Below the pieces are notes generated by a model. It worked only from the letters and a program-made list of their open reading frames with translations, had not been told where the DNA came from and did not search any database. A stretch of DNA of 29,554 nucleotides from positions 1 to 29,554 of the forward strand of contig CAZLEV010000027.1 in NCBI GenBank assembly GCA_964558645.1. Reading direction: 5' to 3'. This document shows positions 4,679-29,554 of this stretch, piece by piece; position 1 is the first letter of the stretch, and each line of letters starts with the position of its first letter. The position numbers were made by a program, and so were the translations under genes. This DNA is from an uncultured archaeon (GTDB lineage Archaea; Asgardarchaeota; Thorarchaeia; Thorarchaeales; Thorarchaeaceae).

Positions 4679-4883
4679 TCAAATCCTACTTGGATTGTAG
4701 TCCTATGAGTCTTTCTGAGGTCTAGGATGGTCTTACATCTCTTCCCAGCATGTCCCGATTTCAGCCAACAGGCCTTTCGTGACGGCGATAGCCACAACCA
4801 GCTGGTCGGCTGTTGGAAACATACACTCTGCACCTTCGTAGCAACATCATACGACTGGATGCGTTCGAGCAGAAAGACACCTT

Positions 4884-5588: not shown

Positions 5589-5824
5589 AGTAACATAACG
5601 ATTCTCAGAAGCATATCCCCATAATGAGATTCATCATCCGAAACAACTGTGAATAGACATGAAAGAAGCACGAGAGTCAACCCTTGACTAGAACCTCATT
5701 CTCTTCTCTAGACTGATCTAAGAGAGGCAGCTCAATCAACTTGCCCACTATTACACCACCGATCTCTAGGAACAAGGCAGGGCACTTCTCCTGCCTAGTA
5801 CATTCATAGGTGCAGGAACGAGTG

Positions 5825-6880: not shown

Positions 6881-6889
6881 AAGTCTGTT

Positions 6890-7783: not shown

Positions 7784-7836
7784 TCAACAGCTACTCTATC
7801 GCCCACTGATTCCAGCAGCTAGCTCGGAGGCAACGA

Positions 7837-8085
7837 GTGGCCGAACAAAGACCATCGGCAAACCTATCACTTTCCTACTACACAGAAACAAGGGATATCG
7901 ACTTGGACGAAGACGAATTGGAGAGGACATCTCTCGCTGCGCATGATGCCATCTTCAGTGACGAGGATGAACTGGAGATAGATGGAGCGACCTATCCGCT
8001 GGAAAATCGAACTTTGATAAATCCGAGGCAAATACTATGTTTGAAACTGAGTGGTCGAAGAAAGGGAAGATATGCTGAAATCTGA
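7837..8085 (+). CDS. small acidic hypothetical protein, possibly a truncated gene fragment
   Basis: Protein-like acidic N-terminal part (DIDLDEDELE...DEDELEIDGATYPLE); composition turns AT-rich near 8005. Confidence 0.3.
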   Translation: MAEQRPSANLSLSYYTETRDIDLDEDELERTSLAAHDAIFSDEDELEIDGATYPLENRTLINPRQILCLKLSGRRKGRYAEI

Positions 8086-8089
8086 TATT

Positions 8090-8341
8090 TCAGGGTCTGA
8101 ATAGACGTTTCAACTTATTTAATTCATCTTCGAGTTCATCAATCCTGAACTCAAGATCATCAATTCTTTCGCGTAACTCCCGTATCTGGTTATTTTCCGG
8201 AGAGAGACTCATGTATGCGGTGATTTCACGAATGCATATTAGTTTTATGTCACTCAGGCTGGACATCCTGTTATTCCTGACGCTCGCCAGAGCAAACTTG
8301 TTATCATGAAATCGTGATGGTGTCGGTGTCGAATAGTGCAT
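8090..8341 (-). CDS. small coiled-coil protein (likely start at internal MSLSPENN, ~8212)
   Basis: Heptad pattern IRELRERIDDLEFRIDELEDELNKLK. Confidence 0.4.
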   Translation of the reverse strand: MHYSTPTPSRFHDNKFALASVRNNRMSSLSDIKLICIREITAYMSLSPENNQIRELRERIDDLEFRIDELEDELNKLKRLFRP

Positions 8342-8533
8342 CGAACTCAGGATACTCTCTTCTCTATCTTGAAACCCTAACAGGATGCCACTTTTTGTAT
8401 TGCCCCCATTCGTATTTACTCATTAGATTTGAACCATCATAGTTAAGCCGTCCTTTCCACCAATGATACTTACAGAAGTTCATTCCGTGCCAATAGCGTT
8501 CTGCTTCCACACCACACTTGTTACATCGAGGGG

Positions 8534-9031
8534 TCATTCCTCTAGCCCCTCCTTGTCATCGTCATCTTGGAAGGATGACGCGAAGAGATCGTCTATGTTT
8601 GGCTGATTCGAGCTACGCAATTCACTCAATCTTTCTATCCCTCTCTCTATACATCTCTCCTTCTCTTTCTTTTCTAGAGAAGCGAGGAAGGGTATAGCAG
8701 ATTGCGTAGATTGCGTAGCTATACTCTGAATCTCTTCTTTCACGAGTTTGATATTGAGATCCATTCCGAACCAAGCTCTCTCCTTGTCTTTGTGTCCTTG
8801 ATCCCAAAATGGAACCAGCTGTATGACTCTCTTTGCAAACCAATTATCACTCGTAGGCTTTTTGCCTGTATAATGTATCCACTTGACATAGAAATCACTC
8901 AAGTCACTTTTCCATGTCACAGGTTCAGGATCTTCTGCTCTTTCGATGTACTTGAGAATGAAGGAAGCTGTCGGATCACTCTTCAGAGAATAAGTCAACA
9001 TCTTCTCATCCGCTGATGGCTTTTCTAGACC
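8534..9031 (-). pseudogene. 5'-truncated phage/plasmid P4-family (D5-like) primase-helicase, C-terminal winged-helix part only
   Basis: Frame reads GLEKPSADEKMLTYSLKSDPTASFILKYI...KSDLSDFYVKW...GKKPTSDNWFAKRV...RAWFGMDL, typical of the region after the SF3 helicase; no helicase domain upstream and an in-frame stop near 9070. Confidence 0.65.
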
Positions 9032-9335
9032 GGAGGAATACGATCTCTTGATTCCGCAGGCTACGCCTCATGAGAGCACGTCAGGGGCATGGCGACTCGT
9101 CAGGGAGCTCTATCGCTCGGCTAGGGAAGTACAGAATATGTGTTTCAGGTTCAAGATTCACGTCTTCTCAGAGAGCATACCTGAACAGCACTAGACATGT
9201 TTGATGAGTCTACTCTCAGCAAGGGTATAAGAATGAACCCTATTACACGGCTCCACCAATGAGTCAAGCAAAAACCTTCTCTCCAGTAAAATGCTTCAGG
9301 AGTTACAAGAAGAGCATTTCATGTATTGAATCCTC

Positions 9336-9740
9336 TCAAAGCAAAGCATAGCCTGCGTCCTCGAAGTGTCCATCGTTAGAGAAGACGGTGTCTATACCAA
9401 AGATATCAATCAGTACGAAACTGGTGTGATCTGTGAAACTGATACCTGAATCGCGTGACCTCTTGAACGAATTCCAAGCCCACTTTTCGTACTGCTCATT
9501 AATGAAGATAATCGTTATGCTGTGTGATTTGCGTATTCCATTCACACACCTAAGTGCCACTGAGTGGTCCGCTCTCCTGCATAATAAGGTGATTAGCTCG
9601 TCTAGAATGTAGTTGGAAGTGACAATGCTGCCCCATAATCCGTTCTGGACTCCCTTCATCTTCTCTATAGCCTGTTCATGATTTGATGAACCCTCAAAGA
9701 GGAAATCGAAAAAGGCGCCAGTGTCAATAAACACCGTCAC
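9336..9740 (-). CDS. vapC: PIN domain ribonuclease toxin (VapC family)
   Basis: VFIDTGAF...TSNYILDE...SFTDHTS...FSNDGHF acidic PIN motifs; GTGA overlap with the upstream gene. Confidence 0.92.
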   Translation of the reverse strand: MTVFIDTGAFFDFLFEGSSNHEQAIEKMKGVQNGLWGSIVTSNYILDELITLLCRRADHSVALRCVNGIRKSHSITIIFINEQYEKWAWNSFKRSRDSGISFTDHTSFVLIDIFGIDTVFSNDGHFEDAGYALL

Positions 9741-10369
9741 TCTGACCCGTCTCCATAGATAGTTTCATCGTGTGAATCTCCTGACTGATTCGCCACCTCA
9801 ATACGGACACTCCCGGCCAAGGAAAAGAACTCGTCCTCACGATCCACTTCTGATGAAGATAGCAGCTCCTTGGCTTCCTCAGTGGTCATGTACCATCTAG
9901 TATCACCTTGCCGAATAGCGATTCTGGAGGTAGTGCTCCGTATCGGTGTAGGAGCAAGATGGCGATAAACTACAAACTCGTCATCTATTTCAGCGACGTA
10001 CAGTTTCTTTCTCAGGGGTACGAGCAAACTAGACTGACTGACATAGTCCTTCTGTGTGCACGAGATGTCAAAGGCGGCGCGTAAATCCGGAAGACTCATT
10101 GTCGATGTTGCTAACAATGACTGCGACAGCAGAAGTTCAATGGACTCATCAAGTTCAGTGTAGGTATCGATGGTTTGACGGAATGTACCGACAATGCGGT
10201 TCGCACTAGTACGACCTCTCGACCCCGGCTGTGCTCCAGCTACAGGAACATCGATCCGCTTCGCTAGTTCCAACTCCGTTGCGCTAGTAGACTCGACTGG
10301 ATGGTCAGCAAACGCCGTGGCGGACTGTCCATACTGATGCTTCATCTGGTTTGCCAATGCTTCCATCAA
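9737..10369 (-). CDS. putative antitoxin, unusually long
   Basis: Translationally coupled to the PIN gene; C-terminus DEFFSLAGSV...SGDSHDETIYG resembles archaeal VapB-type tails. Confidence 0.6.
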   Translation of the reverse strand: MMEALANQMKHQYGQSATAFADHPVESTSATELELAKRIDVPVAGAQPGSRGRTSANRIVGTFRQTIDTYTELDESIELLLSQSLLATSTMSLPDLRAAFDISCTQKDYVSQSSLLVPLRKKLYVAEIDDEFVVYRHLAPTPIRSTTSRIAIRQGDTRWYMTTEEAKELLSSSEVDREDEFFSLAGSVRIEVANQSGDSHDETIYGDGSE

Positions 10370-10379
10370 CCATCACCAC

Positions 10380-11024
10380 TTACGACTCTATTGCATCCTT
10401 GATGATTTCGTCAATATCGGGTATAAACCTCTTCACCAAACTCAGGTCCTGCCTTCGATAAACTAGATTCGCATAGAAGAACCTTGGGTTCTTTACAAAG
10501 GGAGCAATTGACAAATGAAGCCAGTCAGGAACTTCATTCAAGGGAATATTCGGGACATCACCTTCGAACCCACACCAAGCTTTGGAATAGGACCTAAGGG
10601 GAAAATCAACTCTGTCTTTCAGGATTTTCGGAGGCTCAGCATCTAGTTCATTGCTAAGAGGCAATTGCTTCGCTCTCACTTTTGCATAGTAGTTCAGTTC
10701 GTGCCAGATTATCGGAGGAACTTCGCCTAATGCCTGCTCAAGAACGACAAACAACTGCTCCATACCACTGGTCAAATCGTTGAGCCTGTTTGAGCTAATC
10801 GCTAAGTGGCCTTTCGTGCTGTTATAAGAAGTTTCCGTTTTTCCTCGAACTAGGCGATCAATCCGCATTTGGAGCCCCATGTCATCCACAGCCACAGTTA
10901 TTCCCCTATCAGGTGGCAGAAAGAATCCCTTTGATTTTGCCGTATCTAGAACCTCCTCGAATTCGAATGGCTGTGGACTAGCGAATCCCGCAGTAAGCGC
11001 CGCTCTGATGACGATTATTCTCAA
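10380..11024 (-). CDS. hypothetical protein, first gene of the PIN operon
   Basis: 214-aa ORF ending 10 bp before the next gene, with a GGTGA RBS in the gap; beta-rich pattern; start codon uncertain. Confidence 0.65.
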   Translation of the reverse strand: MRIIVIRAALTAGFASPQPFEFEEVLDTAKSKGFFLPPDRGITVAVDDMGLQMRIDRLVRGKTETSYNSTKGHLAISSNRLNDLTSGMEQLFVVLEQALGEVPPIIWHELNYYAKVRAKQLPLSNELDAEPPKILKDRVDFPLRSYSKAWCGFEGDVPNIPLNEVPDWLHLSIAPFVKNPRFFYANLVYRRQDLSLVKRFIPDIDEIIKDAIES

Positions 11025-11170
11025 GATCTCAGCCTTCCTCGTTTCTAATAGACTTGGTCCGATTTAAGTGTGAATGGTGGCGAAGAATGCGGTTTAGATG
11101 GTGAGCGAGAGTCATTTCAGGCTATGCCGGCAGACAGGCAAGATAGGGAAAAGCTCAGAGGCCGAGCCTT

Positions 11171-11629
11171 TTGGCCGCCGGCCCTGCACGAAGAAACGAC
11201 ATTCCTGAGTCGATAAGGAAGAGCTGGCATCACGCGTCTACCTATGGCATGGGTGCCATAGCTTCTGGAGAAGGAGTGCCAAAAACCTTGCGAAAACAAA
11301 GCCCGAAATCATCGAGAGCATCAGGGAGGACAAAAACTACGGATGCGGCTGTCGTGCTGAAACGATGCACATCGCTACGCGAAGACACTGTAGTAAATAG
11401 GGCTGTTCGTGATATGACACAAGGTCAATCCAAGGAAACCTCGTACTGGCTACTGGACACACTGAGAGAACTGGATGTGTTCAGGGAACATCCAAAGCTG
11501 AGAGCTTTGCTGGATAGACACAGCGATGAGATGCGAGGGCGAGTCTATCCTAAGAACATAGACAATCCGTCAGAAACAATCGCAACCTGTCGGTTCCTAG
11601 AGAACGAATGGCGGGCCCCGCCGGATTAG
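11171..11629 (+). CDS. hypothetical protein (5' end uncertain, possibly frameshifted)
   Basis: 152-aa ORF with a helical, protein-like C-terminal half; TTG start; an ATG at 11124 lies in another frame. Confidence 0.4.
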   Translation: MAAGPARRNDIPESIRKSWHHASTYGMGAIASGEGVPKTLRKQSPKSSRASGRTKTTDAAVVLKRCTSLREDTVVNRAVRDMTQGQSKETSYWLLDTLRELDVFREHPKLRALLDRHSDEMRGRVYPKNIDNPSETIATCRFLENEWRAPPD

Positions 11630-11809
11630 AACCAATTCGCTAGTCTGAAACAACAAACTTCTCATTCTGCTCAATGTATGATATCAAACCTAGTTTGAGC
11701 TAAGTGGATAACCACAAGATTGAATTAGTACATTTCCAGAGTCGATTGCGCAAGAGTCAGCTACAACCCGTAAAGGAGCCTGACACTTTAATTTCGGAGG
11801 ATTTCTTAG

Positions 11810-12859
11810 TTGAAGAACTTCGACACTAGGACTTTCAGCGTGAATGATATTCGTCAGTGGGAGGAAAGAAACGAGATAGTGCTTCAACCCAAGTTCCAGC
11901 GGAGAAGAGTCTGGAATGATATGGCCAGATCGTATCTCATTGATACCATTATTCGGGGAAAACCAATTCCAAAGCTGTTCATACGACAGAAAGTGGACAT
12001 GGAGACCATGCACACCATCCGTGAGGTTGTCGATGGGCAGCAGCGACTAACAACCATACTTGCTTTCCTTAAGGATGAAATCACCATCAAGCGAGCTCAC
12101 AGCGAGGAGTACGCGGGCAGGGGCTTCAGCCAACTTCCCGAGAACGTGAAAAAGGATTTTTTGGAGTATGAACTAGCATTTGATTTGCTGCCCAATGCAA
12201 CTGATGAAGAGGTACTGGATATTTTCGCGCGGCTCAACACCTACTCCGTGACCCTGAATCAGCAAGAGAAACTGAATGCTACGTTCTTTGGTGCTTTCAA
12301 GACAACATCTTATGCCTTGGCCTTTGAGTTCAATTCATTTTGGTTGATGAATCGGATTTTCACTGAAAGGAGAGTCGTTCGTATGGCAGAGGCCGAACTC
12401 ACTTCTGATCTTCTCATAGCTATGATTGAGGGAATTCATTCAAAGAAGGCAATCAAGAAACTCTACGAGAAATACGATGAGCATTTGCCCGATAAGAATG
12501 AGATGATGAAACAGTTTCGGCATACTATGGATACTATTGGGGAAATCCTTGGCCCCAATCTATCCTCTTCAAACTTCAGACGAGTGCAGGTATTCTATTC
12601 GCTGTTCTGTGCCTTGTATCATCTCCTTTATGGCTTAAAGAGGTTCGATGTTGAACGCAGAAAGATCCACGAATTCGACTACGAGTGTATCCGATTGGCT
12701 CTTGATGAAATCGACGGCATCTGGAATAGGAGAGAAGAAGATCGCACGCAGAAGGAGAGAGATTTCATCAATTGGTGTAGCCGTGCTACCACAGACGCAC
12801 CTGTTAGGGCGAAGAGAACCGAGTACATCTGCAGAGCCATTGTCAATAGGTTGGGGTAA
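11810..12859 (+). CDS. DUF262 (ParB/Srx-like, GmrSD N-terminal) domain protein
   Basis: QPKFQRRRVW, LIDTI..G.PIP, VVDGQQRLTT and IFARLN signature motifs. Confidence 0.93.
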   Translation: MKNFDTRTFSVNDIRQWEERNEIVLQPKFQRRRVWNDMARSYLIDTIIRGKPIPKLFIRQKVDMETMHTIREVVDGQQRLTTILAFLKDEITIKRAHSEEYAGRGFSQLPENVKKDFLEYELAFDLLPNATDEEVLDIFARLNTYSVTLNQQEKLNATFFGAFKTTSYALAFEFNSFWLMNRIFTERRVVRMAEAELTSDLLIAMIEGIHSKKAIKKLYEKYDEHLPDKNEMMKQFRHTMDTIGEILGPNLSSSNFRRVQVFYSLFCALYHLLYGLKRFDVERRKIHEFDYECIRLALDEIDGIWNRREEDRTQKERDFINWCSRATTDAPVRAKRTEYICRAIVNRLG

Positions 12860-12865
12860 TTCTCA

Positions 12866-13492
12866 ATGCCAAGAAGAGTGCTGAGACTTGTACTCGGGGA
12901 TTTGCAGACCGCCATAAGAACAGCAAGACGCAAAGTCATGAAAGCTCACCGACTATACAGGGACGATGGCAGTGGCGAACTCACAAAATCAGATTTCCAA
13001 GACTGGATTTCAGCAGTCTTTCAGAATGTTGTGTCTGCTTGGGAAACCTTTCTGGAGAACGCTTTTATCCTCTATGCTCTTGGAAAGAGATCTCCGAACG
13101 GAACTAGTACGAGTTGTAATGCTTCTTTCAGAACACGAGATGCAGTAAAGCAAATCCTTCGTGGTCCCGCCAGTTATGTCAAATGGAATGACCCTACCAC
13201 TGTCATTCAGTTAGCGGAGAGATACTTCCAAGATGGCACACCCTTCAGGATTCCAATTAGGAACAACCAGCGATTATTGCAGGATATCCTTACGATACGT
13301 AACGCACTAGGACATGGTACCGAAGATGTGTTTGAGAAGTATCAAGCTCTCGTACGTCATGAGCTGGCCCATTATCCAAGTGGACTCATGCCGGTCGACT
13401 TTCTTATGAGGAACCATGGGGCGAACGGCGCTACATATCTGGAATTCTATATACGTGTTATCGAAGTCACTGGTTCCCAGATAGTTCCATAG
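12866..13492 (+). CDS. HEPN domain putative ribonuclease
   Basis: VSAWETFLE helix and RNALGH (Rx4H) motif; 6 bp downstream of the DUF262 gene. Confidence 0.8.
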   Translation: MPRRVLRLVLGDLQTAIRTARRKVMKAHRLYRDDGSGELTKSDFQDWISAVFQNVVSAWETFLENAFILYALGKRSPNGTSTSCNASFRTRDAVKQILRGPASYVKWNDPTTVIQLAERYFQDGTPFRIPIRNNQRLLQDILTIRNALGHGTEDVFEKYQALVRHELAHYPSGLMPVDFLMRNHGANGATYLEFYIRVIEVTGSQIVP

Positions 13493-13915
13493 GTCTGTGG
13501 TTCATTCCTTCTCTGGGGTCATCCTGATAAGCCCAGTAGTAGAGCGCCCAGCATCCCCACTAGACATTCAATAGAAAAGAATCCATTTAGACCGGGTTTG
13601 AGTTGAGTACGAAACCGATCTGGGGGTAACGAAGCAAGAGAGACTCTCGACTCAAAAGATAGGATCATTCATCTCACGCAGGAGAACATGGCTGGCATCG
13701 ATTCAGGCAATCCGTAGATTTCATGACCCCTGTTCTTGTCCGAAGTCATACCATTGAAGCAATCCTAATATCTAGGTTTAAGATTGCCGAGATTGTGCCA
13801 AAACACCAAGCCAGCTCTCAAGTTTCAATCTGATTGCAACAAGCACCGGAATTGAACTAATCCAACAAGGCACTAAAATGTACCAAGACTACCTTATCTA
13901 TTGATGTGAGCAGCA

Positions 13916-16873
13916 CTATTCGCTAAAGTCTGTTAGTCTTGCCTGTCTTTCACTTATGATCTTTGCACCCTTTAGCTTCTTGACGCGTGTGCGTTTTTCA
14001 TCGATGCCCGAAACCATGACCCCCGCCTCAGTTGCTCCTTTCCGAGCTAGAAACATACTCTCCGCAATAGATGCGGTTTCTTCTGCAGAGTCTTCTAGCT
14101 CGAAGAGGGAGAGGATTGCCCTATCCAGTTCCAAAGTACCCGTTTCGCCTTTGTCCACAATCTCCCTGATCACGGCTTCTATTCTGCTCATCTCCTCCTT
14201 GGAAACCTTGCGTGGATCAAGAACTGGCATGTTCTCGGCCTCATATACCTGCAGTCTATTCATTCCGCCACCGGTTGTTCTGCCATGTAGTTCGCGAAAG
14301 ACAAGTCCAAGGCTCGAATTCATGAACCCACATATAACGATAGGCGAAGTGTCTTCCTCCATCTCAATCATATACATTTGACAGTCTGGTGTGGTTCCAG
14401 CATTCAAGAGGCAGACGGGTCTTCTATATTCCCAGTATTCTCTTGATAGCAGGAGGTCAGGTAGAGGTAACGGGCCAAGGTCAAACCAACATCCATTCTG
14501 GCTTCTGTTACTGGTGCACGTGGGTCTTCTTTGGGGTGGTTCGTGAGGAGACCAGTCTTTTTCCCACATACTATGTATTATGTATTCGTAAAGACCTTCA
14601 TGGCCATCGTTCAACAGACTGTTAAGTACATGAATCTCTTCCTGGGTTAGTTCCATTTCCTTCGCGTCGGATGGAAGTGTGTTCGGGTCTAGAGTGCATC
14701 CTTCCAGCCCTTCACTGTTCAACGCTCTCAGTATTTCATTAACATACTCATGCAAATCAAGAACCTGGTATTCAGTATCATCTGCGTTGAACTCAAGGCG
14801 TCGGGCCTGCTTGATGGACTTCATCAGGGGCTTCAGGAATCTCCTGTCAATATTGTAGGACTTGACCAGTTCTCGGTCAAGATAGAAGAAGTCATTGGCG
14901 CCTGTTGTCTTTCCTCGACTTACTTTAGCAATGTCCTTGAGCTGGCATAAGACCTCATGTCCAAGGAGGTCCCAGTAGAATGTCGGAGCATGAACGAACC
15001 GGTTCCATTTCTCCGCTCCCCTAAGCTCACTCTGGGTGAAAGTTATGGTTCGATAGTCTGGGCTATCGACGAGTATACCCGCCTCCATCTGCTTGTTTAA
15101 CATAGCTAAGATATCATCAACTTCCATTGCTTCCTTGACCCTCACGAACTTTGTGATGTTTCCATCACGTTCTCCATCGTCAGAACACTTCTCAAGAAGT
15201 GTGACACATGTTGGCACGAGGGGATCGGTGAACACTCGACGGGCAAAGCTGACAATAGCCCGTATTCTGAAGTTTTCGAGGAGGAATCTCTGGAGCCCTT
15301 CACCATAGCCTGCTGTCAACCACTTGTCCGAAGTGATGAAGCCCATCCGCCCCCCATCCTGTAGGAACTCTGAAGAGTGAGTGAAGAAGTAGACATAGAT
15401 GTCCGACCTCTCGCTCAGTTCTGAGTAGCCAATGCTTGAGAGATGCTCACGGCATTTCTTCTTGTTCCGTATCATCTCTTGCCTGATGTAGGGTGGATTG
15501 GCAACAATGGCACTGATTCCGTCGGTATGACCTCGCGAGGTTTCGTAAAGCTTGCTCGAGATCGGTTTTCTTAGACTTACCTTCTCAGCAAACAATCGTC
15601 CCTGCGAAGGATCAACATTGAAGAAGTCCTCCACCAAGAGAGTGATTCTTCGGGTTTCCTCTTGTAAGTCTTGGATAGCAAGGTTGATTGCTGACAAGTG
15701 CGCTGGAAACCGGTTGATGTCGATGCCGATGAGCCGAGAGAGGATTGTTTCATGATCCGCCTGAAGATTGTATTCTTCCCGAAGTTTCTTTAATTGATTG
15801 TAGGCAACTATCAGGAAGCTACCGCTTCCACAAGCCGGATCAAGCACCACATCTTGAGGTGATGTTACAGTCGCCTTCACAATTAGGTCAACAATTTCGG
15901 GTGGAGTGTAGTACTGACCTAAGTCATGACGTTCTGAAGCGGGTATAATGTCCTCGTAGATATGGCCTATCGTGTCGTACTGGAACCTGTTGAGATCATA
16001 TTTCTCAAGTTCCTCAAGAAACTCACCTGTTTCTTTTGCAGCCCTATCCGACAAATGGACCTCATCGAAGATCGGGTCGTGTTCGTATATAGCTTCGAAG
16101 TCCGCCTCTTTGGTGAATGTCTTGAAGCTCTCTCTCCTCTTATTTGGCTCTCTTAGATTCTGGAGACCAAGATTGGGAACATCATGGCCGGTGTCCTGTA
16201 GGACTTTGTAGAACAGGAGCTTGTTCATCAGAAGGTAAGCGCTCTGTTTTGCAAAACGATTCTGTGTTTCACCCTTCTCCGGACTCCAGCCTTGCTTCGC
16301 GGCCCACTTCTGGAAGACTTCCTCAAAATGCTTCGTCGGGCTCTTGACATACTTGAGCATTTCTTTAGCAAGCCGTTGATGGAACAGCCGAAGACGATTG
16401 ACGAAGGCTCGCGGATCTGGCTCCCAGCCTATCTTTCCGGCACTTAGCGCTGCAACCTGCTCCAAGAGTTCCGAGGCGAATATTCTAGGACTCTTCACTT
16501 CATACGCCCTCGATTTCCTATGTAGAAGAGGAACGCCTTTCTCGAAGGTTCTGAACAGGACAAGAACCTGCCCGTTATAGGTCGCGAAAAAGTCTGCACC
16601 AAGTGCAAAAGCATATTCGGATGCCTGCTGGATGACCCGCGGAGAATAGGGATCCAAGTCTCGGTCAACGCCATGTTTGCTTTCTCTCTTTGCTTCAATG
16701 ACTAACAGGCATCTACCCATCTCATCTTCAACTACAATATCAGCCCGCCGAAGACCTACAGACTTTTCAGGAATTACTGATCCAAAGGAGATTCCATGGT
16801 ATCTAGGACATTTCTCAATCGCATTCTTCAAGTGTCTGTATAGTTCAAAATGGATATCGGCCTCTTTGTTCAA
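13916..16873 (-). CDS. fused restriction-modification enzyme (type IIG-like): HsdR_N-like endonuclease, N6-adenine methyltransferase and target-recognition region
   Basis: RRADIV...VIEAKR...QASEYA...ATYNG nuclease; GQYYTP, LDPACGSGSF, GIDIN and ANPPYIRQE methyltransferase motifs. Confidence 0.93.
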   Translation of the reverse strand: MNKEADIHFELYRHLKNAIEKCPRYHGISFGSVIPEKSVGLRRADIVVEDEMGRCLLVIEAKRESKHGVDRDLDPYSPRVIQQASEYAFALGADFFATYNGQVLVLFRTFEKGVPLLHRKSRAYEVKSPRIFASELLEQVAALSAGKIGWEPDPRAFVNRLRLFHQRLAKEMLKYVKSPTKHFEEVFQKWAAKQGWSPEKGETQNRFAKQSAYLLMNKLLFYKVLQDTGHDVPNLGLQNLREPNKRRESFKTFTKEADFEAIYEHDPIFDEVHLSDRAAKETGEFLEELEKYDLNRFQYDTIGHIYEDIIPASERHDLGQYYTPPEIVDLIVKATVTSPQDVVLDPACGSGSFLIVAYNQLKKLREEYNLQADHETILSRLIGIDINRFPAHLSAINLAIQDLQEETRRITLLVEDFFNVDPSQGRLFAEKVSLRKPISSKLYETSRGHTDGISAIVANPPYIRQEMIRNKKKCREHLSSIGYSELSERSDIYVYFFTHSSEFLQDGGRMGFITSDKWLTAGYGEGLQRFLLENFRIRAIVSFARRVFTDPLVPTCVTLLEKCSDDGERDGNITKFVRVKEAMEVDDILAMLNKQMEAGILVDSPDYRTITFTQSELRGAEKWNRFVHAPTFYWDLLGHEVLCQLKDIAKVSRGKTTGANDFFYLDRELVKSYNIDRRFLKPLMKSIKQARRLEFNADDTEYQVLDLHEYVNEILRALNSEGLEGCTLDPNTLPSDAKEMELTQEEIHVLNSLLNDGHEGLYEYIIHSMWEKDWSPHEPPQRRPTCTSNRSQNGCWFDLGPLPLPDLLLSREYWEYRRPVCLLNAGTTPDCQMYMIEMEEDTSPIVICGFMNSSLGLVFRELHGRTTGGGMNRLQVYEAENMPVLDPRKVSKEEMSRIEAVIREIVDKGETGTLELDRAILSLFELEDSAEETASIAESMFLARKGATEAGVMVSGIDEKRTRVKKLKGAKIISERQARLTDFSE

Positions 16874-21482: not shown

Positions 21483-22343
21483 TCACCGTCGTTCAATTCG
21501 CGGTGCCATGGCCAGTGTGACCTTCCCGGTCCGAGCAACCAGCGGCTGCTCCGCGGCATACTCCAGTGTGACCTGCAGGGTATCAGGCACGAAGTGCGAA
21601 ACCAGATCGAGCAGTCGCAGGGCATAGAACGCCCTGACCTCTCGAAACTCTAGCTCATCATCCTCTTCCTCTCGGAACCCGAGGTTCTCCACACCCAGCA
21701 ACCCCTCGCTTCGGTGCAGGAAGACTGTTTCATCCTCTCCACTCTCGCCAGCATAGACGAAGGAGAAGTCCCCCTGAGTGCTCGTGACCAAGTACGCATG
21801 GTCGAACTGCTTCTTGCTCCGCAGCATCGACCTGAAGGCCTTCCCCGTCATCCGGATCCGCGCCTCGTGCTTGAGACGTGGGGCCTTAGCGGGCTCCACT
21901 GAACCATCAAGCAGGGTGACCCGTCCGACGCCATCCTCGCCCTCGACTTCCATTACACTCTCCCCGATACGGATGCTCAGCCGATTGGTACACAGCTTCA
22001 GCGCGTTCTTCAGCTCTGACAGGCCGACAGCCACAGTCCGTTCTTCGCTGATCGTGTACCGTTTGAACCAGTCTGCAGGGATGTCCACACTGATGTAGCA
22101 GGTGCGCTCAGAGTTCAACTGGGAGAGATGTATTCCCTCTCTGTCCAGCATGAAGATGCCCTCATAGAGGAGTTTCTCCAACCCTCTGATGATTCCAGCG
22201 AATTTCCGCACCTTGAACCGTCCGATGAACAGAATCCGTGTCCCCTGCTCTCCCGTAACCGAAGCTGTCATGAGGTCATGTCCTCTCTTGCACCTATAAT
22301 GTCCCCAGAAAACTGATTGTACAGGGAACTGATTCCACGACAT
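21483..22343 (-). CDS. pcna: divergent PCNA (DNA sliding clamp) homolog
   Basis: LLYEGIFMLDREGIHLSQLNSERTCYISVDIPADWFKRY...VAVGLSELKNALK...FYALRLL...LEYAAEQPL...LAMAPRIE follows the archaeal PCNA pattern end to end. Confidence 0.88.
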   Translation of the reverse strand: MSWNQFPVQSVFWGHYRCKRGHDLMTASVTGEQGTRILFIGRFKVRKFAGIIRGLEKLLYEGIFMLDREGIHLSQLNSERTCYISVDIPADWFKRYTISEERTVAVGLSELKNALKLCTNRLSIRIGESVMEVEGEDGVGRVTLLDGSVEPAKAPRLKHEARIRMTGKAFRSMLRSKKQFDHAYLVTSTQGDFSFVYAGESGEDETVFLHRSEGLLGVENLGFREEEDDELEFREVRAFYALRLLDLVSHFVPDTLQVTLEYAAEQPLVARTGKVTLAMAPRIERR

Positions 22344-22349
22344 ATCCTC

Positions 22350-25300
22350 TCAACGTCCATTGACTCTATTCGAGTCGTCACGGATCTGTCGCTCAAGGGC
22401 TCGCATCTTGGTGGTCAGGGTATCTACAGTGATATTCTCTCCACGTTTTCGGAGCTGCTCCAAGAGCCCTCTCGATTCCTCAAGGTCTCTCCTAGTCTCA
22501 TCCTGACGTTCAATGTCAAGATGAAGGAGGCAGTGGGCCCTGAGGATGAGTCCTCTCGCAAGAGCCTGAAGGACGATGATGTCGATCAGGTTCTCCTCCC
22601 TGAGCAGACTGACCCCCTCCTCTAGGAGCTGCAGCGCCTCCGTCAGATGCCCCCTCTCAGCGCGAAACTGACCGTAGTCGATCAGCGTCTTTGCTAGATA
22701 CTTCAGCTCCTCAGGCGCCTCTAGAGCTTCCTCTCTATATTCTGTGATGACTTCTTCGTAATCCCTCGCGAGTACATCGTCCTCATTTACGGCCATGTCA
22801 GAGAGATCCGCTCCCTCACGGATTGCCTTGAGCGCCTCCTGTACCTCCCCCTGATTCTCAAGAGAGTACGGCCAGGCCCTGAACTCCTCATGGTCAAGTA
22901 CCTCAAGGAGTTCCTCTACCCCCTCAGCGGTGAGACTGATAGACTCCACCCGCTTCAATGAGCCATCCCTCTCCACCCTGCTGATGACCAGGGTAGACTC
23001 CTCCACTCCGTGCTGGACCTCCCCTCTGCATATCGGAGGTGTGTCCCTCCAGCCACGACTCTCCAGCTCATCCCTGAGCTCTGCCATTGAGTCCTCCAAC
23101 CCATCAAGATGTCCGAGAGGCACCACAGCGGCGACGTCTTGCTTGAACGCCTCGAGGACGGTATCAACGCTGGAACTAGGATCAGGCTGAAACGTATAGG
23201 TCTGGTCCAGCCATGCTCGCCGAGAGGAGAGTTCCACGATGCTCCACGTCAGCCGGTCTTCGCGTGAGACATAGCTCCACCGGACACCCCACGAGCCACG
23301 ACTCCAGTCGAAGGCATCCCGATCCACCTCTGCCAGTGCATGAGAGAGGGCAGGATACCGTTCCACCTGTGACGCACTGAGGTCCAAGTGGCCTGACACG
23401 TCCAGCTCCACCTCGTGGCGAAGCCGGTTTTTTGTGTCGATGAGCTGTTCGCACTCGGCAAGGAGCCCCACCTCGTACAGAGAGGGAGAGGCCTCTTCGA
23501 GGGATCTGAGGGGTGAGTCATCCTCCAGTCCCTGAAGCTGCAGCCGAAACCCGCTTCCACTCCTCTCAGTCCATATCGTCAGCGTCACATCCCCGCCCGC
23601 CGATGCGGCCAACAACTCAGCGCAGCTCTCTGGATAGGAGTAGTGGTCAGGGAGAAACCTGCTCTTCAAGACCAGCGGGATGAGGCAGGTCAGGGAGTCA
23701 TCCGTGTACGTGATGTCCTCTTTGTGGTCCCACGTGACCGCCCCGGCAGCAGTGTCGTATCCAACCCCTCTTCGGATGGGATAGCGGAGGACCCCCACCA
23801 GCTCATCAGTGTCGCTGAACTCCTCCTCCACAGAGATGCCATCCCCCGTGAACTGGACCACATACACCCCTCGACGAGGATCCACAGAGACCTCCAGCTT
23901 GACAGGCGTGACGGGTCTCTCTAGCTGGCCAAGCTCGCGAAGATACTGGTCCACTGCCTGACCGGGGTCACTGTCTGGTGTTGGCGGGATGAGCAGACCC
24001 TGGGTGATATCGGGGACCGTGAAGGGATCAGTGACCCTCAGCCAGGGAATGGTTCGCTGGTTCTTGTCGGGGTATCCGTGGGTGAGGAGGTACGGCCACC
24101 ACTCATCATCCTCACTGGGCAGCCAAAGTATCCTGTGCTCAGCCACATCCGAAAGCATGATGGTCGTGCGTTCCTCCGAGCTTAGAGCACTCCTCGAGTA
24201 CTCCCTCAGTGAGCCTGCGTCCATGTCACATCGATACCACCTCGGTCGGAGAGACGCATCGGCCCCGGTGGTGACCAAGCCTGAGACCATCTCTCCCCGC
24301 TGGTCAGGAAACACCAGGAGGCCTTTGCTGCTATCTCCCTCCTCCCACCAGATGATCTGGCCGGTGGATGCCTGTGAGAGGGAGGTCTCCGGGATGTTCC
24401 GGTCAGATAGAGTCCGTGCGCGGGACCGGAGGCTCCGGTAGATCGTATGCAGGTCGTACTTCGAGGTGACGCTGCTATCCCTCGAGCGAAGTCCCATCTG
24501 GTAGAACGTCCACTCAGCCACCGCTGCCCACAGCGTCTCGTAGTGACAAGAGTTCTCCTCCTGCGCAGCCGCGCAGACCATAAGGAACAGGTTGTTCCCA
24601 TACAGCAAAAGAGCATCCGGAATCTCTTTTGTGATGGTCTCCAGACGTTTCCTGTTGTCGGAGTTCAGGAGGTCGAGAAGCTGCTCCCGTCCGGGTCGGA
24701 GACTCTCCCAGACCTGAGATAGGGATGTCTCTGAGAGGATGATATCTCGGACCAAGGACAGGGTATCCAAGTAGGCATCGCCATCCCCAGTGTCTTCAGA
24801 GTCTGAGAGGACATCCTGACAGAGGTCGGCAATCTCCTCGCAGACACCCTTGAGGGTCCTGCCTAGGGGTCGTGCTGCCAAGTATCTTGCAGTTGTGAGG
24901 AAACGCTTGAGTTCCCATCTCCGTGTGCTACAGCTGTCAAGAGTCACAGCATCCAATTCAGAAGGAACTGGTGGGCGACAGAGGCTACGAGGCCGGGCAG
25001 GTATCTCAGGCCGGGGTGTGGGGTTCCGTTCATAGAACCACCGCCGTGTGATCTTCCCAGACTCCACATACCTGTCCTTAGAGCGTACGGGGTCTGGAGG
25101 CGGTCGAGCCGGTTGGAATCGGAAACGTTGCCGCTGGGTACTTGCCCTTGCGGAGCTGATACCTTGCACCAGTATCTGCGGAATCTCCAGTGCCTCCTGC
25201 GGTTGCTGTTCGTGGCCGTCTCTCGCACGGTATAGACTCGGAACCAGACTGCAGGACTGCTCCATGACCCTGTCCAGGGTGTCCATGGTTAGGTTCCCCA

Positions 25301-27974
25301 GCCCGGACTGGATAGAGGAGAGATTGATGCTCCGCGCATACATCCTGGAGTCGTTCACCACGTGCCTTGCCACATCATCCTGTGAGAGTGACCCATGCCT
25401 TGAGGAGGCCCCCCGGAATCGCTCTGCTGCACCCACGAGGTGAGGGACGTGGATGGTGGTCCTCCACGGAAGTGCCGATGTGGGAGTGTCCTGTACGATG
25501 ACTCGCACGTCTTCGCGCCAGGGCGTAAGGTTGCCGAAGATACGCGGAGGAGACGGGAGGTTATAGATCACCTCGTCAAGGTGCGTCCTGCGGGGAGAGT
25601 CGTGGCGGAAAGGTTTGATGCATCCTCGCTGACAGTCTGCGGAGGTCAGGGTATCCTCAGTACCGGTATCGATCCAGATGATGTTCGTGTCTGTGGAGGG
25701 GAGCGTATCCAGTAGCTGCACTTCCAGGGTGCGGAGGAGATGGCGGGAGTGGGTTGGAATCATCTTACGCAGTTCATCCCACCCGTCCACAACGATGATC
25801 TTCTCGCCCTCGGTCTCAACAGCATTGCAGATAGTGGTTAGCATGCCCTCTATCGACTGGTTCTCGCCCCTCAGGAGTTTCTCTGTGTGAACATGAAGGT
25901 CAACGAAGGAGATGGCCTCGACCTCAGCTACCAGCTCGCCGTGTTCCGACCGGGATATCCTCTTCTCGGCAAGGAGTCTGTCAAGTCCAAACCGCAGGTT
26001 GGTCAGCTGGCCGGTCTGGTAGTCCCCAAGCAAATCCAGCCAAAACACACCTATCTCTTGCGATGAGGCCTCTCTGCACTCTCTTATGTGGTGGAGAAGA
26101 TGCCAGTTCGATGACTGCCATGCGGACGTCTTACCTGATGAGGTCGGAGTGGGAACGGACACGTAGACCGTGAGTATGCGGTCGTCTGTAATGCGATCTG
26201 CAAAGGGGTCCTCGGAGACCAACTCAGCCGGAGGGGCTCTCTGAGAGAGGATTCTATCAGGGCCTGCGTCTGGCAGAAGGAGCAGCGCCACCCGGGGAGA
26301 AGGCAAGATACTGTCTGTATCAAGCACCTGTGAGATAGTCTTTGGTGGGGCCTGGAAAGTGTCACCTGTCAGTTCCACCAGCAGGTTTTCGATGAGAGTC
26401 TGAAATGCTGAGTATGCATCAATGGGAATCTGGTCAGCATCCAGGACGATGACCCCCTTCCAGAGAGAGGTGGGCGGTGTCGGGTCGAAGTCCGCCGTGC
26501 GCTTGTACTCCCTGATGATGGCCTGTTCGTACGCATCGAGCTGACCTTTTGTGCTCTTCTTCGGCGGTGATGTGAGCAATGCATTCCACTCGCCCCCTGT
26601 GAGTGCCCTCTTCCACGCAAAGAAGGCGGGCGCATACTCGTTCTCCTCTCTGCTCCCCACCTCAACACCGTAGAGGTTGATATCGAAGGCACTCTTGGTC
26701 TTGACCTCAAGAATCATGATCGGTGTCCAGATGGTCCGCTTCTCGAGCTCTCGGCGGAGGAAGAACACGAGGTCAGCCTGTCCCCGTCGTGAGTCTACGG
26801 GAAGCTCTGCGACAGCCAAGACGGAGGAGGGCTGGTCCAACATGGTGTCCCCGGCAAAGACCACCTGCTTCAGTGAGGCAGGGTGGTGGAAGCCCGAGAG
26901 GAGGATCCTGTGCCAGCGGTTGCCCTCCTGTGAAGTCGATGAGGAGAGCTGGTCAGTGAGCTTGTCGGCATCCCGTTCCACCACAGTCCCGGCATCGATC
27001 TGGTCCTTCATGCTCTGATAGAGTGTCATCTCGCCCTCATCCACCGTCTTTTGCGGGAGACATTTTACCGCCTTACGGATATCCCCAAGAGTGATTGGCG
27101 ATGGTATATCTAGGGACCGAGTGATCGACTGTCTCTGCCCGGCATGAAGTCCGTACAACGCTCTGATCTCCAGTACGATCTCTCGGAGTTCCCTGTTGGC
27201 ATCCCGGTTGAAGTTGGGTCGGCCTGTGGCCCTCTCAGTGTAGACCCAGTCGAGGAAGGGCCGCAGCCGGTGGATCAGGAGTCGGATGTAGCGGTGTGCC
27301 TCAGTGCGAGGAACGCTGTAGATGAAGCACTGCCTGCAGAGCTCGACGACGTGGGCGCGGATCATGTCGACAAAATCAAGGCTTGGGAGGGTGGGGTGCG
27401 CAAGGTAGACCTGCGGGGTCTTTGTTGTCCCGCTGTAACCGGCCTTCCAGGAGATCTCGGTGTTCTTGTCGAAGTCATCTGGCGGGTACAGACCCTTGGC
27501 CTTCAGCCGGTTGACGAGGGCTAGAGAATAGACCTTCACCGTGCCATCCGGGAACCTTGCTATCTGGAAGACCCGTGGTTCAGGGAATGGGTACCGTGTC
27601 ATGGCCAGGTCACGGAGTCGTGCTCCCGCGTAGTTCAGCAAGGCATTCAGGGGCCCCACTGTCCCCTCAGTCCAGTCGTAGACCCGCTTGAGTTCCGTGT
27701 TACCGTAGGGTACGGTGCTGTGCCACACGAACTGAAGAAACGACTTCCGCATGTTTGGCTCGGTGTTGTTGAGAACCAGATAGTCCTGCCTCTTACCTTC
27801 TTGAGCCCTCAGTGCAGCGCGGACAGCATCCCACATCTTTGAGGCAGAGCAATGGTACTTCGCGAGGCCGCCACTGGCTCTAGGGCCAAGGAGGTTGACA
27901 AGGGCCATGAGACCAGCATGCTTCGCTCTCCCCAGCACAACATTCGGGCGAAGTAATCGCGGTCTGCGTCCCAT
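22350..27974 (-). CDS. giant multidomain protein: diverged Cas1 catalytic domain + Cas4/RecB-like PD-(D/E)XK nuclease + P-loop-like domain + unknown region + TPR-like tail
   Basis: Cas1-like E72...KR...PLNALLNY(110)...GLYP...H193-PTLPSL-D200-FV-D203-MIR; nuclease GNRWH...E390...GQAD401...E423VK...Q478LDAY; PTSSGK615TS and IIVVD730GWDE. Confidence 0.75.
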   Translation of the reverse strand: MGRRPRLLRPNVVLGRAKHAGLMALVNLLGPRASGGLAKYHCSASKMWDAVRAALRAQEGKRQDYLVLNNTEPNMRKSFLQFVWHSTVPYGNTELKRVYDWTEGTVGPLNALLNYAGARLRDLAMTRYPFPEPRVFQIARFPDGTVKVYSLALVNRLKAKGLYPPDDFDKNTEISWKAGYSGTTKTPQVYLAHPTLPSLDFVDMIRAHVVELCRQCFIYSVPRTEAHRYIRLLIHRLRPFLDWVYTERATGRPNFNRDANRELREIVLEIRALYGLHAGQRQSITRSLDIPSPITLGDIRKAVKCLPQKTVDEGEMTLYQSMKDQIDAGTVVERDADKLTDQLSSSTSQEGNRWHRILLSGFHHPASLKQVVFAGDTMLDQPSSVLAVAELPVDSRRGQADLVFFLRRELEKRTIWTPIMILEVKTKSAFDINLYGVEVGSREENEYAPAFFAWKRALTGGEWNALLTSPPKKSTKGQLDAYEQAIIREYKRTADFDPTPPTSLWKGVIVLDADQIPIDAYSAFQTLIENLLVELTGDTFQAPPKTISQVLDTDSILPSPRVALLLLPDAGPDRILSQRAPPAELVSEDPFADRITDDRILTVYVSVPTPTSSGKTSAWQSSNWHLLHHIRECREASSQEIGVFWLDLLGDYQTGQLTNLRFGLDRLLAEKRISRSEHGELVAEVEAISFVDLHVHTEKLLRGENQSIEGMLTTICNAVETEGEKIIVVDGWDELRKMIPTHSRHLLRTLEVQLLDTLPSTDTNIIWIDTGTEDTLTSADCQRGCIKPFRHDSPRRTHLDEVIYNLPSPPRIFGNLTPWREDVRVIVQDTPTSALPWRTTIHVPHLVGAAERFRGASSRHGSLSQDDVARHVVNDSRMYARSINLSSIQSGLGNLTMDTLDRVMEQSCSLVPSLYRARDGHEQQPQEALEIPQILVQGISSARASTQRQRFRFQPARPPPDPVRSKDRYVESGKITRRWFYERNPTPRPEIPARPRSLCRPPVPSELDAVTLDSCSTRRWELKRFLTTARYLAARPLGRTLKGVCEEIADLCQDVLSDSEDTGDGDAYLDTLSLVRDIILSETSLSQVWESLRPGREQLLDLLNSDNRKRLETITKEIPDALLLYGNNLFLMVCAAAQEENSCHYETLWAAVAEWTFYQMGLRSRDSSVTSKYDLHTIYRSLRSRARTLSDRNIPETSLSQASTGQIIWWEEGDSSKGLLVFPDQRGEMVSGLVTTGADASLRPRWYRCDMDAGSLREYSRSALSSEERTTIMLSDVAEHRILWLPSEDDEWWPYLLTHGYPDKNQRTIPWLRVTDPFTVPDITQGLLIPPTPDSDPGQAVDQYLRELGQLERPVTPVKLEVSVDPRRGVYVVQFTGDGISVEEEFSDTDELVGVLRYPIRRGVGYDTAAGAVTWDHKEDITYTDDSLTCLIPLVLKSRFLPDHYSYPESCAELLAASAGGDVTLTIWTERSGSGFRLQLQGLEDDSPLRSLEEASPSLYEVGLLAECEQLIDTKNRLRHEVELDVSGHLDLSASQVERYPALSHALAEVDRDAFDWSRGSWGVRWSYVSREDRLTWSIVELSSRRAWLDQTYTFQPDPSSSVDTVLEAFKQDVAAVVPLGHLDGLEDSMAELRDELESRGWRDTPPICRGEVQHGVEESTLVISRVERDGSLKRVESISLTAEGVEELLEVLDHEEFRAWPYSLENQGEVQEALKAIREGADLSDMAVNEDDVLARDYEEVITEYREEALEAPEELKYLAKTLIDYGQFRAERGHLTEALQLLEEGVSLLREENLIDIIVLQALARGLILRAHCLLHLDIERQDETRRDLEESRGLLEQLRKRGENITVDTLTTKMRALERQIRDDSNRVNGR

Positions 27975-28003
27975 GATACTTCTAGAGTCTTATGTCAAGT
28001 TTA

Positions 28004-28012
28004 CTTATAAAT
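28004..28012 (-). promoter_or_regulatory. putative TATA box for the Cas1-fusion/PCNA operon
   Basis: ATTTATAAG on the minus strand about 30-38 bp upstream of the ATG at 27974, in an AT-rich intergenic region. Confidence 0.55.
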
Positions 28013-28170
28013 AGACTGTGACCAAACAGAGGTTATGAAAAAGGCTTATGATGGCTTATTTTGGCTAAAAAACGTCCCATAATTCTCTATTTGGCTATTC
28101 GTCTTGATACACTTAAAAGTGTTAATGAGATTATATTGTCGGACCCAGACAGAAGAGAGGTGCACGATTG

Positions 28171-29554
28171 ATGACGACGACAGTCCGGCGCCGTCCCCGG
28201 AGGCAGCGGGAATCTGATGAAAGTTCCCAGAAGCAATCGACAATGGATGGCACACTTAAAAATGTTCCATCAACCGCGCACCAGAGTACGGGACTGAAGT
28301 ATCTGGTACAGTCGTTCACCCTCTGTTCAGCGGATAGAGAGGTGAACAAGAAGGGGAAGGGGAAACGACCCGATCCTCGTTACCGGCGATGTAGTCCTAG
28401 ACCTGTACGAAAAGAGATCGAGGCGGCTACCGGGCGAAAGGTCAGAGATATGGACCTCTCTCTTCTGGGTCGATACTTCGAGAAGTATGTAGAGCTCGTG
28501 AATCTCGTTCTCGAGCGTGTGTATGCTTCCCGTGAACGGATTGACTTCCTTGGAGACGAGCTGAACTCCTATCGAGGACAGGGATATGTCCTGTTGAAGA
28601 AGGAGGAGTATCTTGCATACAAGGACAATCCCGATATCAGCGAACAGTGCTTCGAGAGACTCTACAGGAACGTCTTGGAACAGGCGGCCCGGATCATCCA
28701 GTCCAACTGGCTACGGCGTCAGCTCATGAAGGCCGCCATTCGGCTTCTCGATGAGGAACAGAACACACTGTTGCGATTGCTGAGGAACAAGTACATTCCC
28801 TCAGACATGGTAAAGGACGTGCGTTCCAGATGCGAGAGCACGAAGAACAACGGTTCGGGATACTACTATGCCCTGTCTGTCCTGAAACAGCTTCGGCGAG
28901 CTCTTGATGAGCACATCCTGACGGAGAGGGCAGAGTCCCTTGGTTCCAGACCATCGCAGCGGCGACGCGTTCGACGGTACGTCAAGGATGAGACGGAGTG
29001 CTCAGAGACCATGGCTTGCGTTGATGCTCTGCTGCACCAGTTCACCACGGAGGGCTATCCCTTCAAGGTCCCGCGGATGTACTCCCACACGGAGGACTTC
29101 TCAGCAAGCACAGAGAACTCCCCCGGTCAGGGCTACTGGTATTCACAGGACCTGGAGAGGGAAAACGAGGTGCTGTTCTTCCTGAAGCTGCCGGAGGCGA
29201 TGGAGGGAGCGGAACATGATGACTCGCCCTTCCGTACAAGGACGCTCTCGTTCAGGTTTCTTGACTGGCTCCCACGGGCGGCCGCCAAGGACCGAAGGAA
29301 GGGCGATGAGGCAGAGCGAGCTGGGAAGCATATGCGAGCCAAGAAGCTGCGATTCCGGGCCATGAGGTTCGAGGATCAACACGAACAGCTTGTCAACACC
29401 ATCGAGCTTCAACACGCCACCTATCAGCTGGCGAAGTGGAAGAACCGGAAGGATGCGGACCCTGAGAAGATTGCACACCTGAAGGAGAAGGTGCAGTATC
29501 TCAGGAAGTCCAGAACCTGCGGCCCACCTCGCCTCTTGCTTCGTGAGCACAGAG
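28171..29554 (+). CDS. large TnpB/Cas12-like protein, N-terminal part (runs off the window; absent from the ORF track)
   Basis: Manual translation gives 461 codons without a stop from ATG 28171 (GAGGTG RBS upstream): MTTTVRRRPR...KYLVQSFTLCS...LGRYFEKYVELVNLVLE...ERLYRNVLEQAARIIQSNW...GYPFKVPRM...PPRLLLREHR. The ORF itself is well supported; the family call is inferred because no RuvC domain lies in the window. Confidence 0.6.
   Translation, partial: MTTTVRRRPRRQRESDESSQKQSTMDGTLKNVPSTAHQSTGLKYLVQSFTLCSADREVNKKGKGKRPDPRYRRCSPRPVRKEIEAATGRKVRDMDLSLLGRYFEKYVELVNLVLERVYASRERIDFLGDELNSYRGQGYVLLKKEEYLAYKDNPDISEQCFERLYRNVLEQAARIIQSNWLRRQLMKAAIRLLDEEQNTLLRLLRNKYIPSDMVKDVRSRCESTKNNGSGYYYALSVLKQLRRALDEHILTERAESLGSRPSQRRRVRRYVKDETECSETMACVDALLHQFTTEGYPFKVPRMYSHTEDFSASTENSPGQGYWYSQDLERENEVLFFLKLPEAMEGAEHDDSPFRTRTLSFRFLDWLPRAAAKDRRKGDEAERAGKHMRAKKLRFRAMRFEDQHEQLVNTIELQHATYQLAKWKNRKDADPEKIAHLKEKVQYLRKSRTCGPPRLLLREHR

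Follow-up and report, generated by a model that had tools for sequence, protein, structure and literature searches.

In Asgard archaea, the TnpA that usually accompanies TnpB is replaced by aCas1s, which are variants of Cas1 (Altae-Tran et al. 2023, PMC10691335, with reference to Makarova et al. 2020, CRISPR J 3:156). In that description, aCas1 "is likely to be the transposase," the loci are "often flanked with repeats," and tnpB is followed downstream by a hypervariable stretch and then by GTTCACTCA. Here, we analyzed a giant protein and its tnpB neighbor on contig CAZLEV010000027.1 (assembly GCA_964558645.1) from an uncultured archaeon of the Thorarchaeaceae; the contig, 29,554 nucleotides (nt) in length, is referred to as the window, and other contigs of the same genome are given as C with a number. 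The gene (22350-27974, complement strand) is an intact, single open reading frame from its ATG encoding 1874 amino acids (aa), and its product is one more copy of the published aCas1-TnpB family and, because of that membership, not new as a kind. Features shared with the published elements (TnpB groups "Cas1H-Asgard-1" and "Cas1H-Asgard-2") include the Asgard host, an extremely diverged Cas1 homologue, an obligately adjacent TnpB (27 of 27 loci), two size classes of TnpB (~720 and ~560 aa), repeats flanking some loci, and GTTCACTCA after tnpB in the class of TnpB proteins of ~560 aa. Nothing essential differs; the window copy's own TnpB class has another end motif.

Residues 1 to 275 of the giant protein (27150-27974, complement strand) are very probably a true, extremely diverged homologue of the Cas1/casposase catalytic domain with a predicted competent active site, a case that rests on modeled fold, motif register, and conservation together. 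The original prediction, made from the letters of the window, had placed such a domain at the N-terminus and had set a structural match to the Cas1 alpha-helical domain as its test. An AlphaFold2 model of residues 1 to 340, built from a 96-sequence alignment, had a predicted local distance difference test score (pLDDT) of 91.6 and a predicted template modeling score (pTM) of 0.79. Foldseek returned nothing at E < 1e-3 for this model, and about 12 Cas1 chains were present in its top 50, with probabilities of up to 0.82. Upon re-alignment with VIA-align, the top 36 entries were all Cas1 or casposase (Z 13.6 to 8.3; next fold, Z 5.5), including 8flj_A (Z 13.6, root mean square deviation 3.8, 176 aa), 3god_A (Z 13.5), 4n06_B (Z 13.3, 194 aa), and the casposase 6opm_C (Z 12.4, 199 aa). 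An unfiltered scan of 48,161 PDB representatives gave the same picture: the top 12 were all Cas1 or casposase (Z 13.3 to 9.6, 150 to 196 residues; next fold, 6.6), and solely these folds scored above Z 7. In every match, the model from residues 1-5 to ~250-264 aligned to the C-terminal alpha-helical catalytic domain of Cas1 (for example, to chain positions 114-319 of a 320-residue protein), with residues 1-5 falling on Cas1 residues 80-114, where the helical domain starts. Since the model thus begins directly in the helical domain, the beta N-terminal domain is absent, as had been supposed from the sequence. The exclusive matches, the gap to the next fold, the coverage of the full domain, and the motif register together make a chance resemblance unlikely.

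The predicted active site points the same way. E72, N110, H193, D200, and D203, all named in the original prediction, were found at the positions given there, and the candidate Glu-His-Asp triad proved to be conserved familywide, as was D200. The predicted metal-binding E72 is encoded at 27759-27761, the predicted catalytic H193 at 27396-27398, and the acidic pair of the SLDFVDMIR motif (D200-F-V-D203) at 27366-27377, with D203 itself at 27366-27368 (all complement strand). In the hhalign register against Cas1, E72 falls on the Glu of "mGlEG," GPLN110ALLN114Y on "DPxNalLNYgY," and D200, D203, and R206 on "LDLiEEFR." H193 was not placed reliably by hhalign; it is invariant, lies in the loop just before helix 197-218, and is equated with the Cas1 His by motif order. 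Among 96 close homologues, G91, N92, E94, R97, N110, N114, H193, D200, D203, and R206 were invariant, and E72 was at least 90% conserved. A set of 58 divergent members at 20 to 50% overall identity, among them the most divergent representatives and this genome's own paralogues, retained E72 in 53/54, H193 in 55/55, D200 in 54/55, R206 in 55/55, and N110 in 55/55, with D203 present as Asp in 52 and as Glu in 3. The Glu-His-Asp-Asp metal site is predicted to be intact, and this pattern of conserved residues is what would be expected of an active site under selection. The insertion expected after NALLNY was also found, as a beta-rich variable segment (residues 128-192; 27399-27593, complement strand) between the NALLNY helix and H193, with modeled strands at 134-140, 146-150, 173-180, and 188-190; its length ranges from 19 to 65 aa across the family and is greatest in the window copy. 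One part of the motif assignment had to be abandoned: "GLYP" (161-164) sits in a 9-residue insertion absent from 93 of the 96 homologues and is therefore not the GLDP motif of Cas1.

The domain is indeed hidden from sequence comparison. Pfam, NCBIfam, and PADLOC gave nothing relevant in the giant protein or in its residues 1 to 320, and no Cas1 was found among PDB sequences by phmmer or by hmmsearch with the 96-sequence family profile. The Pfam Cas1 model PF01867 matched only the canonical Cas1 on contig C4 (C4:109177-110016) in this 3.6-Mb genome. When the family profile was run against 1.84 billion representatives, 132 clusters were recovered, nearly all of them giants of 1.4 to 2.35 thousand amino acids (kaa) and none a canonical Cas1. 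Alignment by hhalign with 30 canonical Asgard Cas1 proteins was not significant (P 0.028 and 0.1). Compared with Cas1 of CRISPR systems (PF01867; 4n06, 3god, and 8flj), the domain shares the alpha-helical catalytic fold and the order Glu / Asn-x3-Asn / His / Asp-x2-Asp(Glu)-x2-Arg. It differs in that it lacks the N-terminal beta domain, Cas2, a CRISPR array, and a Pfam match, carries the 19- to 65-aa insertion before the His, and is embedded in a multidomain protein of 1.9 kaa whose neighbors are TnpB and a PCNA-like gene, not the cas2 and array of a CRISPR adaptation Cas1.

From N- to C-terminus, the giant protein is ordered as the Cas1-like domain, a RecB/Cas4-like nuclease, a RecA/KaiC-like domain with a degenerate Walker A, and ~1070 poorly characterized residues. 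A helical linker (residues 276-340; 26955-27149, complement strand) of short helices, with pLDDT dipping to 54 at 280-290, follows the Cas1-like domain and had no specific fold match in the scan of 48,161 representatives. Residues 341 to 800 gave a confident fold model (pLDDT 91.3). The first part of these, residues 341-570 (26265-26954, complement strand), was assigned as a RecB/Cas4-like PD-(D/E)xK nuclease domain by its conserved residues and a structural match: G398, D401, K425, Q478, and Y482 are invariant and E423 is at least 90% conserved in the family alignment, so that the D..ExK and QxxxY motifs of the RecB/Cas4 pattern are present, and the best match was the Cas4 domain of the Cas4/Cas1 fusion 7mi4_A (moderate, at Z 7.6 over 115 aa). 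No Cys occurs in residues 341-570 of the giant protein or in the family consensus for this region, and the four-cysteine Fe-S cluster of Cas4 is therefore missing. Like 7mi4, the giant protein joins Cas1 and a RecB-family nuclease in one polypeptide (the Cas1 half of 7mi4_A matched at Z 11.5); unlike 7mi4, it places Cas1 ahead of the nuclease, which is devoid of cysteines, and continues for ~1300 further residues. By analogy, this neighborhood of Cas4-like and Cas1-like domains echoes natural Cas4/Cas1 fusions and would favor the Cas1 assignment.

The next domain (residues 595-800; 25575-26192, complement strand) is an alpha/beta domain matching the RecA-like core (Z 9.0 to 7), with KaiC 8dba_A at Z 9.0, PH0250 at Z 8.8, and RAD51 paralogues and RadA also among the matches. 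Its Walker A reads "SSGKTS" in the window copy versus "SSGNAAAW" in the family consensus; because the family does not conserve the Lys, it is doubtful whether its members are active ATPases. A STAND/NLR-like defense reading of the protein was considered and rejected, given the RecA/KaiC-like center, the nonconserved Walker A Lys, and the lack of a PADLOC match. The C-terminal residues 801-1874 (22350-25574, complement strand) are uncharacterized, with weak TPR-like signals near the end: sub-threshold TPR matches at residues 1704-1790 and weak TPR leads in an Atlas feature search of 801-1874 (0.80). More than 180 homologues of 1.4 to 1.9 kaa were found, most of them, including the nearest, labeled Candidatus Thorarchaeota and others labeled Lokiarchaeota or Promethearchaeia.

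The giant gene and a divergent tnpB form a two-gene module of ~8 kb that is multicopy in Thorarchaeota-like Asgard archaea. In the window, the two start codons are separated by a 193-bp divergent intergenic region (27975-28167) common to both genes, and the TnpB/Cas12-like gene (28168-29553, forward strand) is represented by its 5' 462 codons, of a protein of ~720 aa, before the contig ends. This portion is 89% identical to a full copy at C14:53964-56123, which matches PF07282 at 3.3e-12 as well as OrfB_IS605. TnpB was head-to-head with the giant gene in all 27 loci with upstream DNA, and the two-gene module, which carries no polymerase, was seen in 22 of 23 extended loci. The G+C content of the giant gene and its upstream neighbor is 0.57 to 0.60, compared to 0.45 to 0.50 in the remaining window. 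The giant gene is one of six paralogues in this genome, and many partial copies sit at contig ends. C14 carries a twin with 93% identity across the full 1874 residues; its DNA matches that of the window from the stop codon (22348), across the upstream gene, and as far as the contig end, and the flanks past the stop codon differ. Among the Asgard genomes sampled, matches to the Cas1-like profile occurred in 29 of the 43 that belong to the same GTDB family, in 1 of 7 from one other family, and in none of ~150 others, usually with several and with up to about ten copies per genome.

Two size classes of TnpB, ~720 aa and ~560 aa, are linked to the giant-protein family, and the ends of their elements are distinct. 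In the ~560-aa class, the GTTCACTCA motif lies 98 to 149 nt after tnpB in 8 of 14 loci, and the stretch between GGAACACAGAAGT and GTTCACTCA varies among copies; the ~720-aa class of the window lacks GTTCACTCA and ends with ACAAT[C/G]A[A/G]CGG, 2 to 23 nt after the stop. A transfer RNA (tRNA) gene lies within ~0.5 kb of a module end in 6 of 23 loci (L076, L077, L080, L082, L044, and L045), and two TnpB-only copies (on C2 near 25.1 kb and on C16) are also within ~0.4 kb of a tRNA gene. A divergent paralogue at C2:426246-430871 and its tnpB, for a ~560-aa TnpB (locus L044, C2:425900-433200), are bracketed by a 166-nt imperfect direct repeat (C2:426066-426230 and C2:432778-432943). Within each copy of this repeat, a stretch resembling an RNA scaffold (GGAACACAGAAGTCC..) is followed by a GTTCACTCA-like motif, by ~32 nt in which the two copies differ, and by the 3' 46 nt of tRNA-Gly; the intact tRNA-Gly is at the tnpB side, where the GTTCACTCA motif lies 98 nt after tnpB, and beyond the second repeat, no remnant of tnpB was detected. 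A search for tRNA fragments downstream of the other paralogues yielded, besides this C2 case, a marginal 15-nt match at C30 only. Of the 23 loci, only two had inverted-repeat candidates that clearly exceeded the shuffled maximum (36 and 46 nt); another match, of 24 nt at L078, was barely over the reporting cutoff. The 36-nt imperfect inverted repeat at L045 (C6:128700-136600) has arms at C6:128988-129023 and 136352-136387, outside the module, and encloses tRNA-Lys; the 46-nt imperfect repeat at L076, likewise outside the module, overlaps tRNA-His. These two may be element ends or may reflect tRNA-related similarity. Casposases (6opm) resemble the present family as Cas1-fold integrases of mobile elements (a role only predicted here) with sites at tRNA genes, whereas casposons differ from it in having PolB, terminal inverted repeats, and a C-terminal helix-turn-helix, none of which was found here, and in not having TnpB as a partner. 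Casposon target duplications are 14 to 15 bp long, unlike the 166-nt repeat flanking the C2 paralogue.

The analysis shows the modeled fold, the conserved active site, the order of the domains, the obligate linkage to TnpB, the multicopy state, and, for one paralogue, flanking direct repeats; catalytic activity, an integrase role, and a division of labor are inferred. By metal-dependent DNA cleavage and transesterification, the Cas1 domain would insert the module at new positions, frequently next to tRNA genes. Processing of DNA ends would fall to the fused RecB/Cas4-like nuclease, and TnpB, guided by its RNA, would cleave matching sites as it does in other TnpB transposons, so that the element is retained or homes. 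Mobility is suggested by the six paralogues, the C14 twin with other flanks, the contig-end copies, the TnpB linkage, the tRNA-associated ends, and the C2 repeat. The explanation as a whole, namely, a diverged Cas1 domain with a metal site in a giant protein that forms a module with TnpB and moves by this proposed mechanism, appears reasonably probable, and the chances that the Cas1-like domain acts as the integrase or transposase of a two-gene element are, in our estimation, about even. CRISPR owes its memory to the enzyme Cas1, and Cas12 descends from TnpB; a natural, obligate pairing of a minimal Cas1 with TnpB in archaeal relatives of eukaryotes bears on how RNA-guided nucleases first met an integrase and on whether, outside casposons, a transposase can be built on the Cas1 fold. 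The pairing as such has been published. Added here are structure-level evidence of the Cas1 fold for the window copy, a domain map, the linkage count of 27 of 27, the lineage restriction, and the tRNA-associated ends with a 166-nt direct repeat, which supply concrete substrates and mutants for biochemistry.

Several points weigh against this explanation. Significance against Cas1 was reached by none of the sequence methods (hhalign P 0.03 to 0.1), and mostly helical models can reach VIA-align Z scores near 13 by arrangement alone. The giant protein lacks the beta domain by which canonical Cas1 and casposases dimerize, and it has no Cas2 in its vicinity; a self-association prediction with two copies of residues 1 to 340 scored 0.00 and was uninformative either way. 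At the ends of the C14 twin, no terminal inverted or direct repeats rose above shuffled controls, and the same was true of terminal inverted repeats and target duplications in most of the 23 loci. The window copy itself is old, as its junction with a PCNA-like gene is also found in a congeneric genome, and it is cut at the tnpB side by the contig end. Finally, in the literature searched, no experimental or biochemical study of aCas1 was found.

Were there no homology at all, the helical bundle would resemble Cas1 by chance and the motifs would be coincidental. The nonsignificant sequence searches and the Z values that helical models can attain by chance would allow this, yet only Cas1 and casposase exceeded Z 7 among 48,161 representatives, the alignment spans the whole catalytic domain, three motifs line up in register at invariant positions, a Cas4-like domain comes next, and the family has already been classed as Cas1 homologues (PMC10691335); we consider coincidence highly improbable. 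Only slightly more credible is a noncatalytic relic, in which the Cas1-like domain would be a DNA-binding or scaffold module and the chemistry would be left to the RecB-like nuclease and TnpB. Such decay has a precedent within the giant protein, whose RecA-like domain has lost the Walker A Lys in most members, and the missing dimerization domain and Cas2 would fit it as well. Against it stands the conservation of the four catalytic positions, R206, and N110, which is at least 95% at 20 to 50% overall identity. An immobile defense or toxin system is a better candidate, if still an unlikely one: the Cas1-like DNase and the RecB-like nuclease would be effectors, TnpB an RNA-guided sensor or partner, and the C-terminal repeats a sensor. 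Free Cas1 proteins are metal-dependent DNases (according to the titles of 3god and 4n06), the window holds a defense-rich island (GmrSD, a type IIG restriction-modification enzyme, and a PIN protein), and the locus is conserved in a congeneric genome. However, no PADLOC model matched, the central domain is RecA/KaiC-like with a degenerate P-loop and not a STAND NTPase, and the up to ~ten copies per genome, the copies at contig ends, and the direct repeat with its tRNA fragment fit a mobile element better.

A further possibility is that the fused domains do not, or do not only, transpose. Instead, they might capture short DNA and write it into the guide segment of the neighboring TnpB RNA gene, inserting or replacing the variable segment in a one-protein, one-spacer form of adaptation in which the element is not moved. 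Cas1 with Cas4 is the pairing of CRISPR adaptation, as the match to 7mi4 recalls; the published hypervariable stretch adjoins the repeat-like GTTCACTCA after tnpB (PMC10691335); and here, the segment between GGAACACAGAAGT and GTTCACTCA varies by copy, and the repeats flanking the C2 paralogue carry different ~32-nt segments. Variable sequence beside a transposon end is, however, expected from different insertion sites alone, the ~720-aa TnpB type of the window has no GTTCACTCA, array-like repeats are absent from the window, and there is no Cas2. Guide writing is judged improbable, whether in place of transposition or in addition to it; if true, these elements would represent an extant stage between OMEGA/TnpB transposons and type V CRISPR-Cas.

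Fragments elsewhere in the genome bear on the limits of the two-gene module. The last 55 nt of the window (29500-29554) are identical to C14, and the last 30 nt overlap the start of C1 (C1:1-30; compare C6:1-14). C1 also holds the coding sequence for the part of TnpB that the window lacks, its C-terminus (94% to the C14 copy). The contig was broken here by a repeat during assembly, and its continuation is probably C1 (or C6). C10 begins with a fragment (C10:368-1102) in which the final 222 codons of a giant gene, 79% identical at the aa level, are followed by ~65 nt past the stop that match the window (22287-22349), whereas the C14 twin diverges right at the stop codon; the element end on the aCas1 side may therefore be ~65 nt beyond the stop. 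Some 14 near-identical copies of a module "..GGGGTGGAACGCAGAAGTCTCTT..GTGAC GTTCACTCA CCAAAC.." are dispersed across the genome (for example, at C2:386246, C4:5435, C6:184975, C9:22677, C13:104115, C17:54885, C26:18398, and C26:35557), several of which adjoin C-terminal TnpB remnants of ~100 aa or tRNA genes. These copies resemble miniature or decayed forms derived from the ~560-aa TnpB elements.

Six nucleotides downstream of the giant gene lies the PCNA-like gene (21483-22343, complement strand), a divergent PCNA paralogue with a weak PCNA_N match only; the canonical PCNA of the genome is at C10:102401-103105. A second copy, 84% identical, is at C8:162185-162928, and a fragment of the 5' region is at C1:305916-306134. 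The start is probably near 22229, since the first 38 codons of the long open reading frame are absent from the C8 copy. The junction between the PCNA-like and aCas1 genes recurs at 76% nucleotide identity in a congeneric genome. A functional link between the two genes was rejected, as they are adjacent only here and at the orthologous congeneric locus and in 0 of 25 other loci; for the same reason, the PCNA-like gene is taken to be host flank and the window insertion to be old. No CRISPR array, tandem repeat, or Rfam CRISPR family was detected in the window. Farther away, a defense-type or variable island spans 643-16873. It includes a Sacsin/NOV_C protein (643-3093), a methyladenine glycosylase (3872-4678), a CAAX protease (5825-6880), a PIN protein (9336-9740), a GmrSD-N protein (11810-12859) followed by a weak HEPN match (12866-13492), and a type IIG-like methyltransferase/restriction enzyme of 985 aa (13916-16873).

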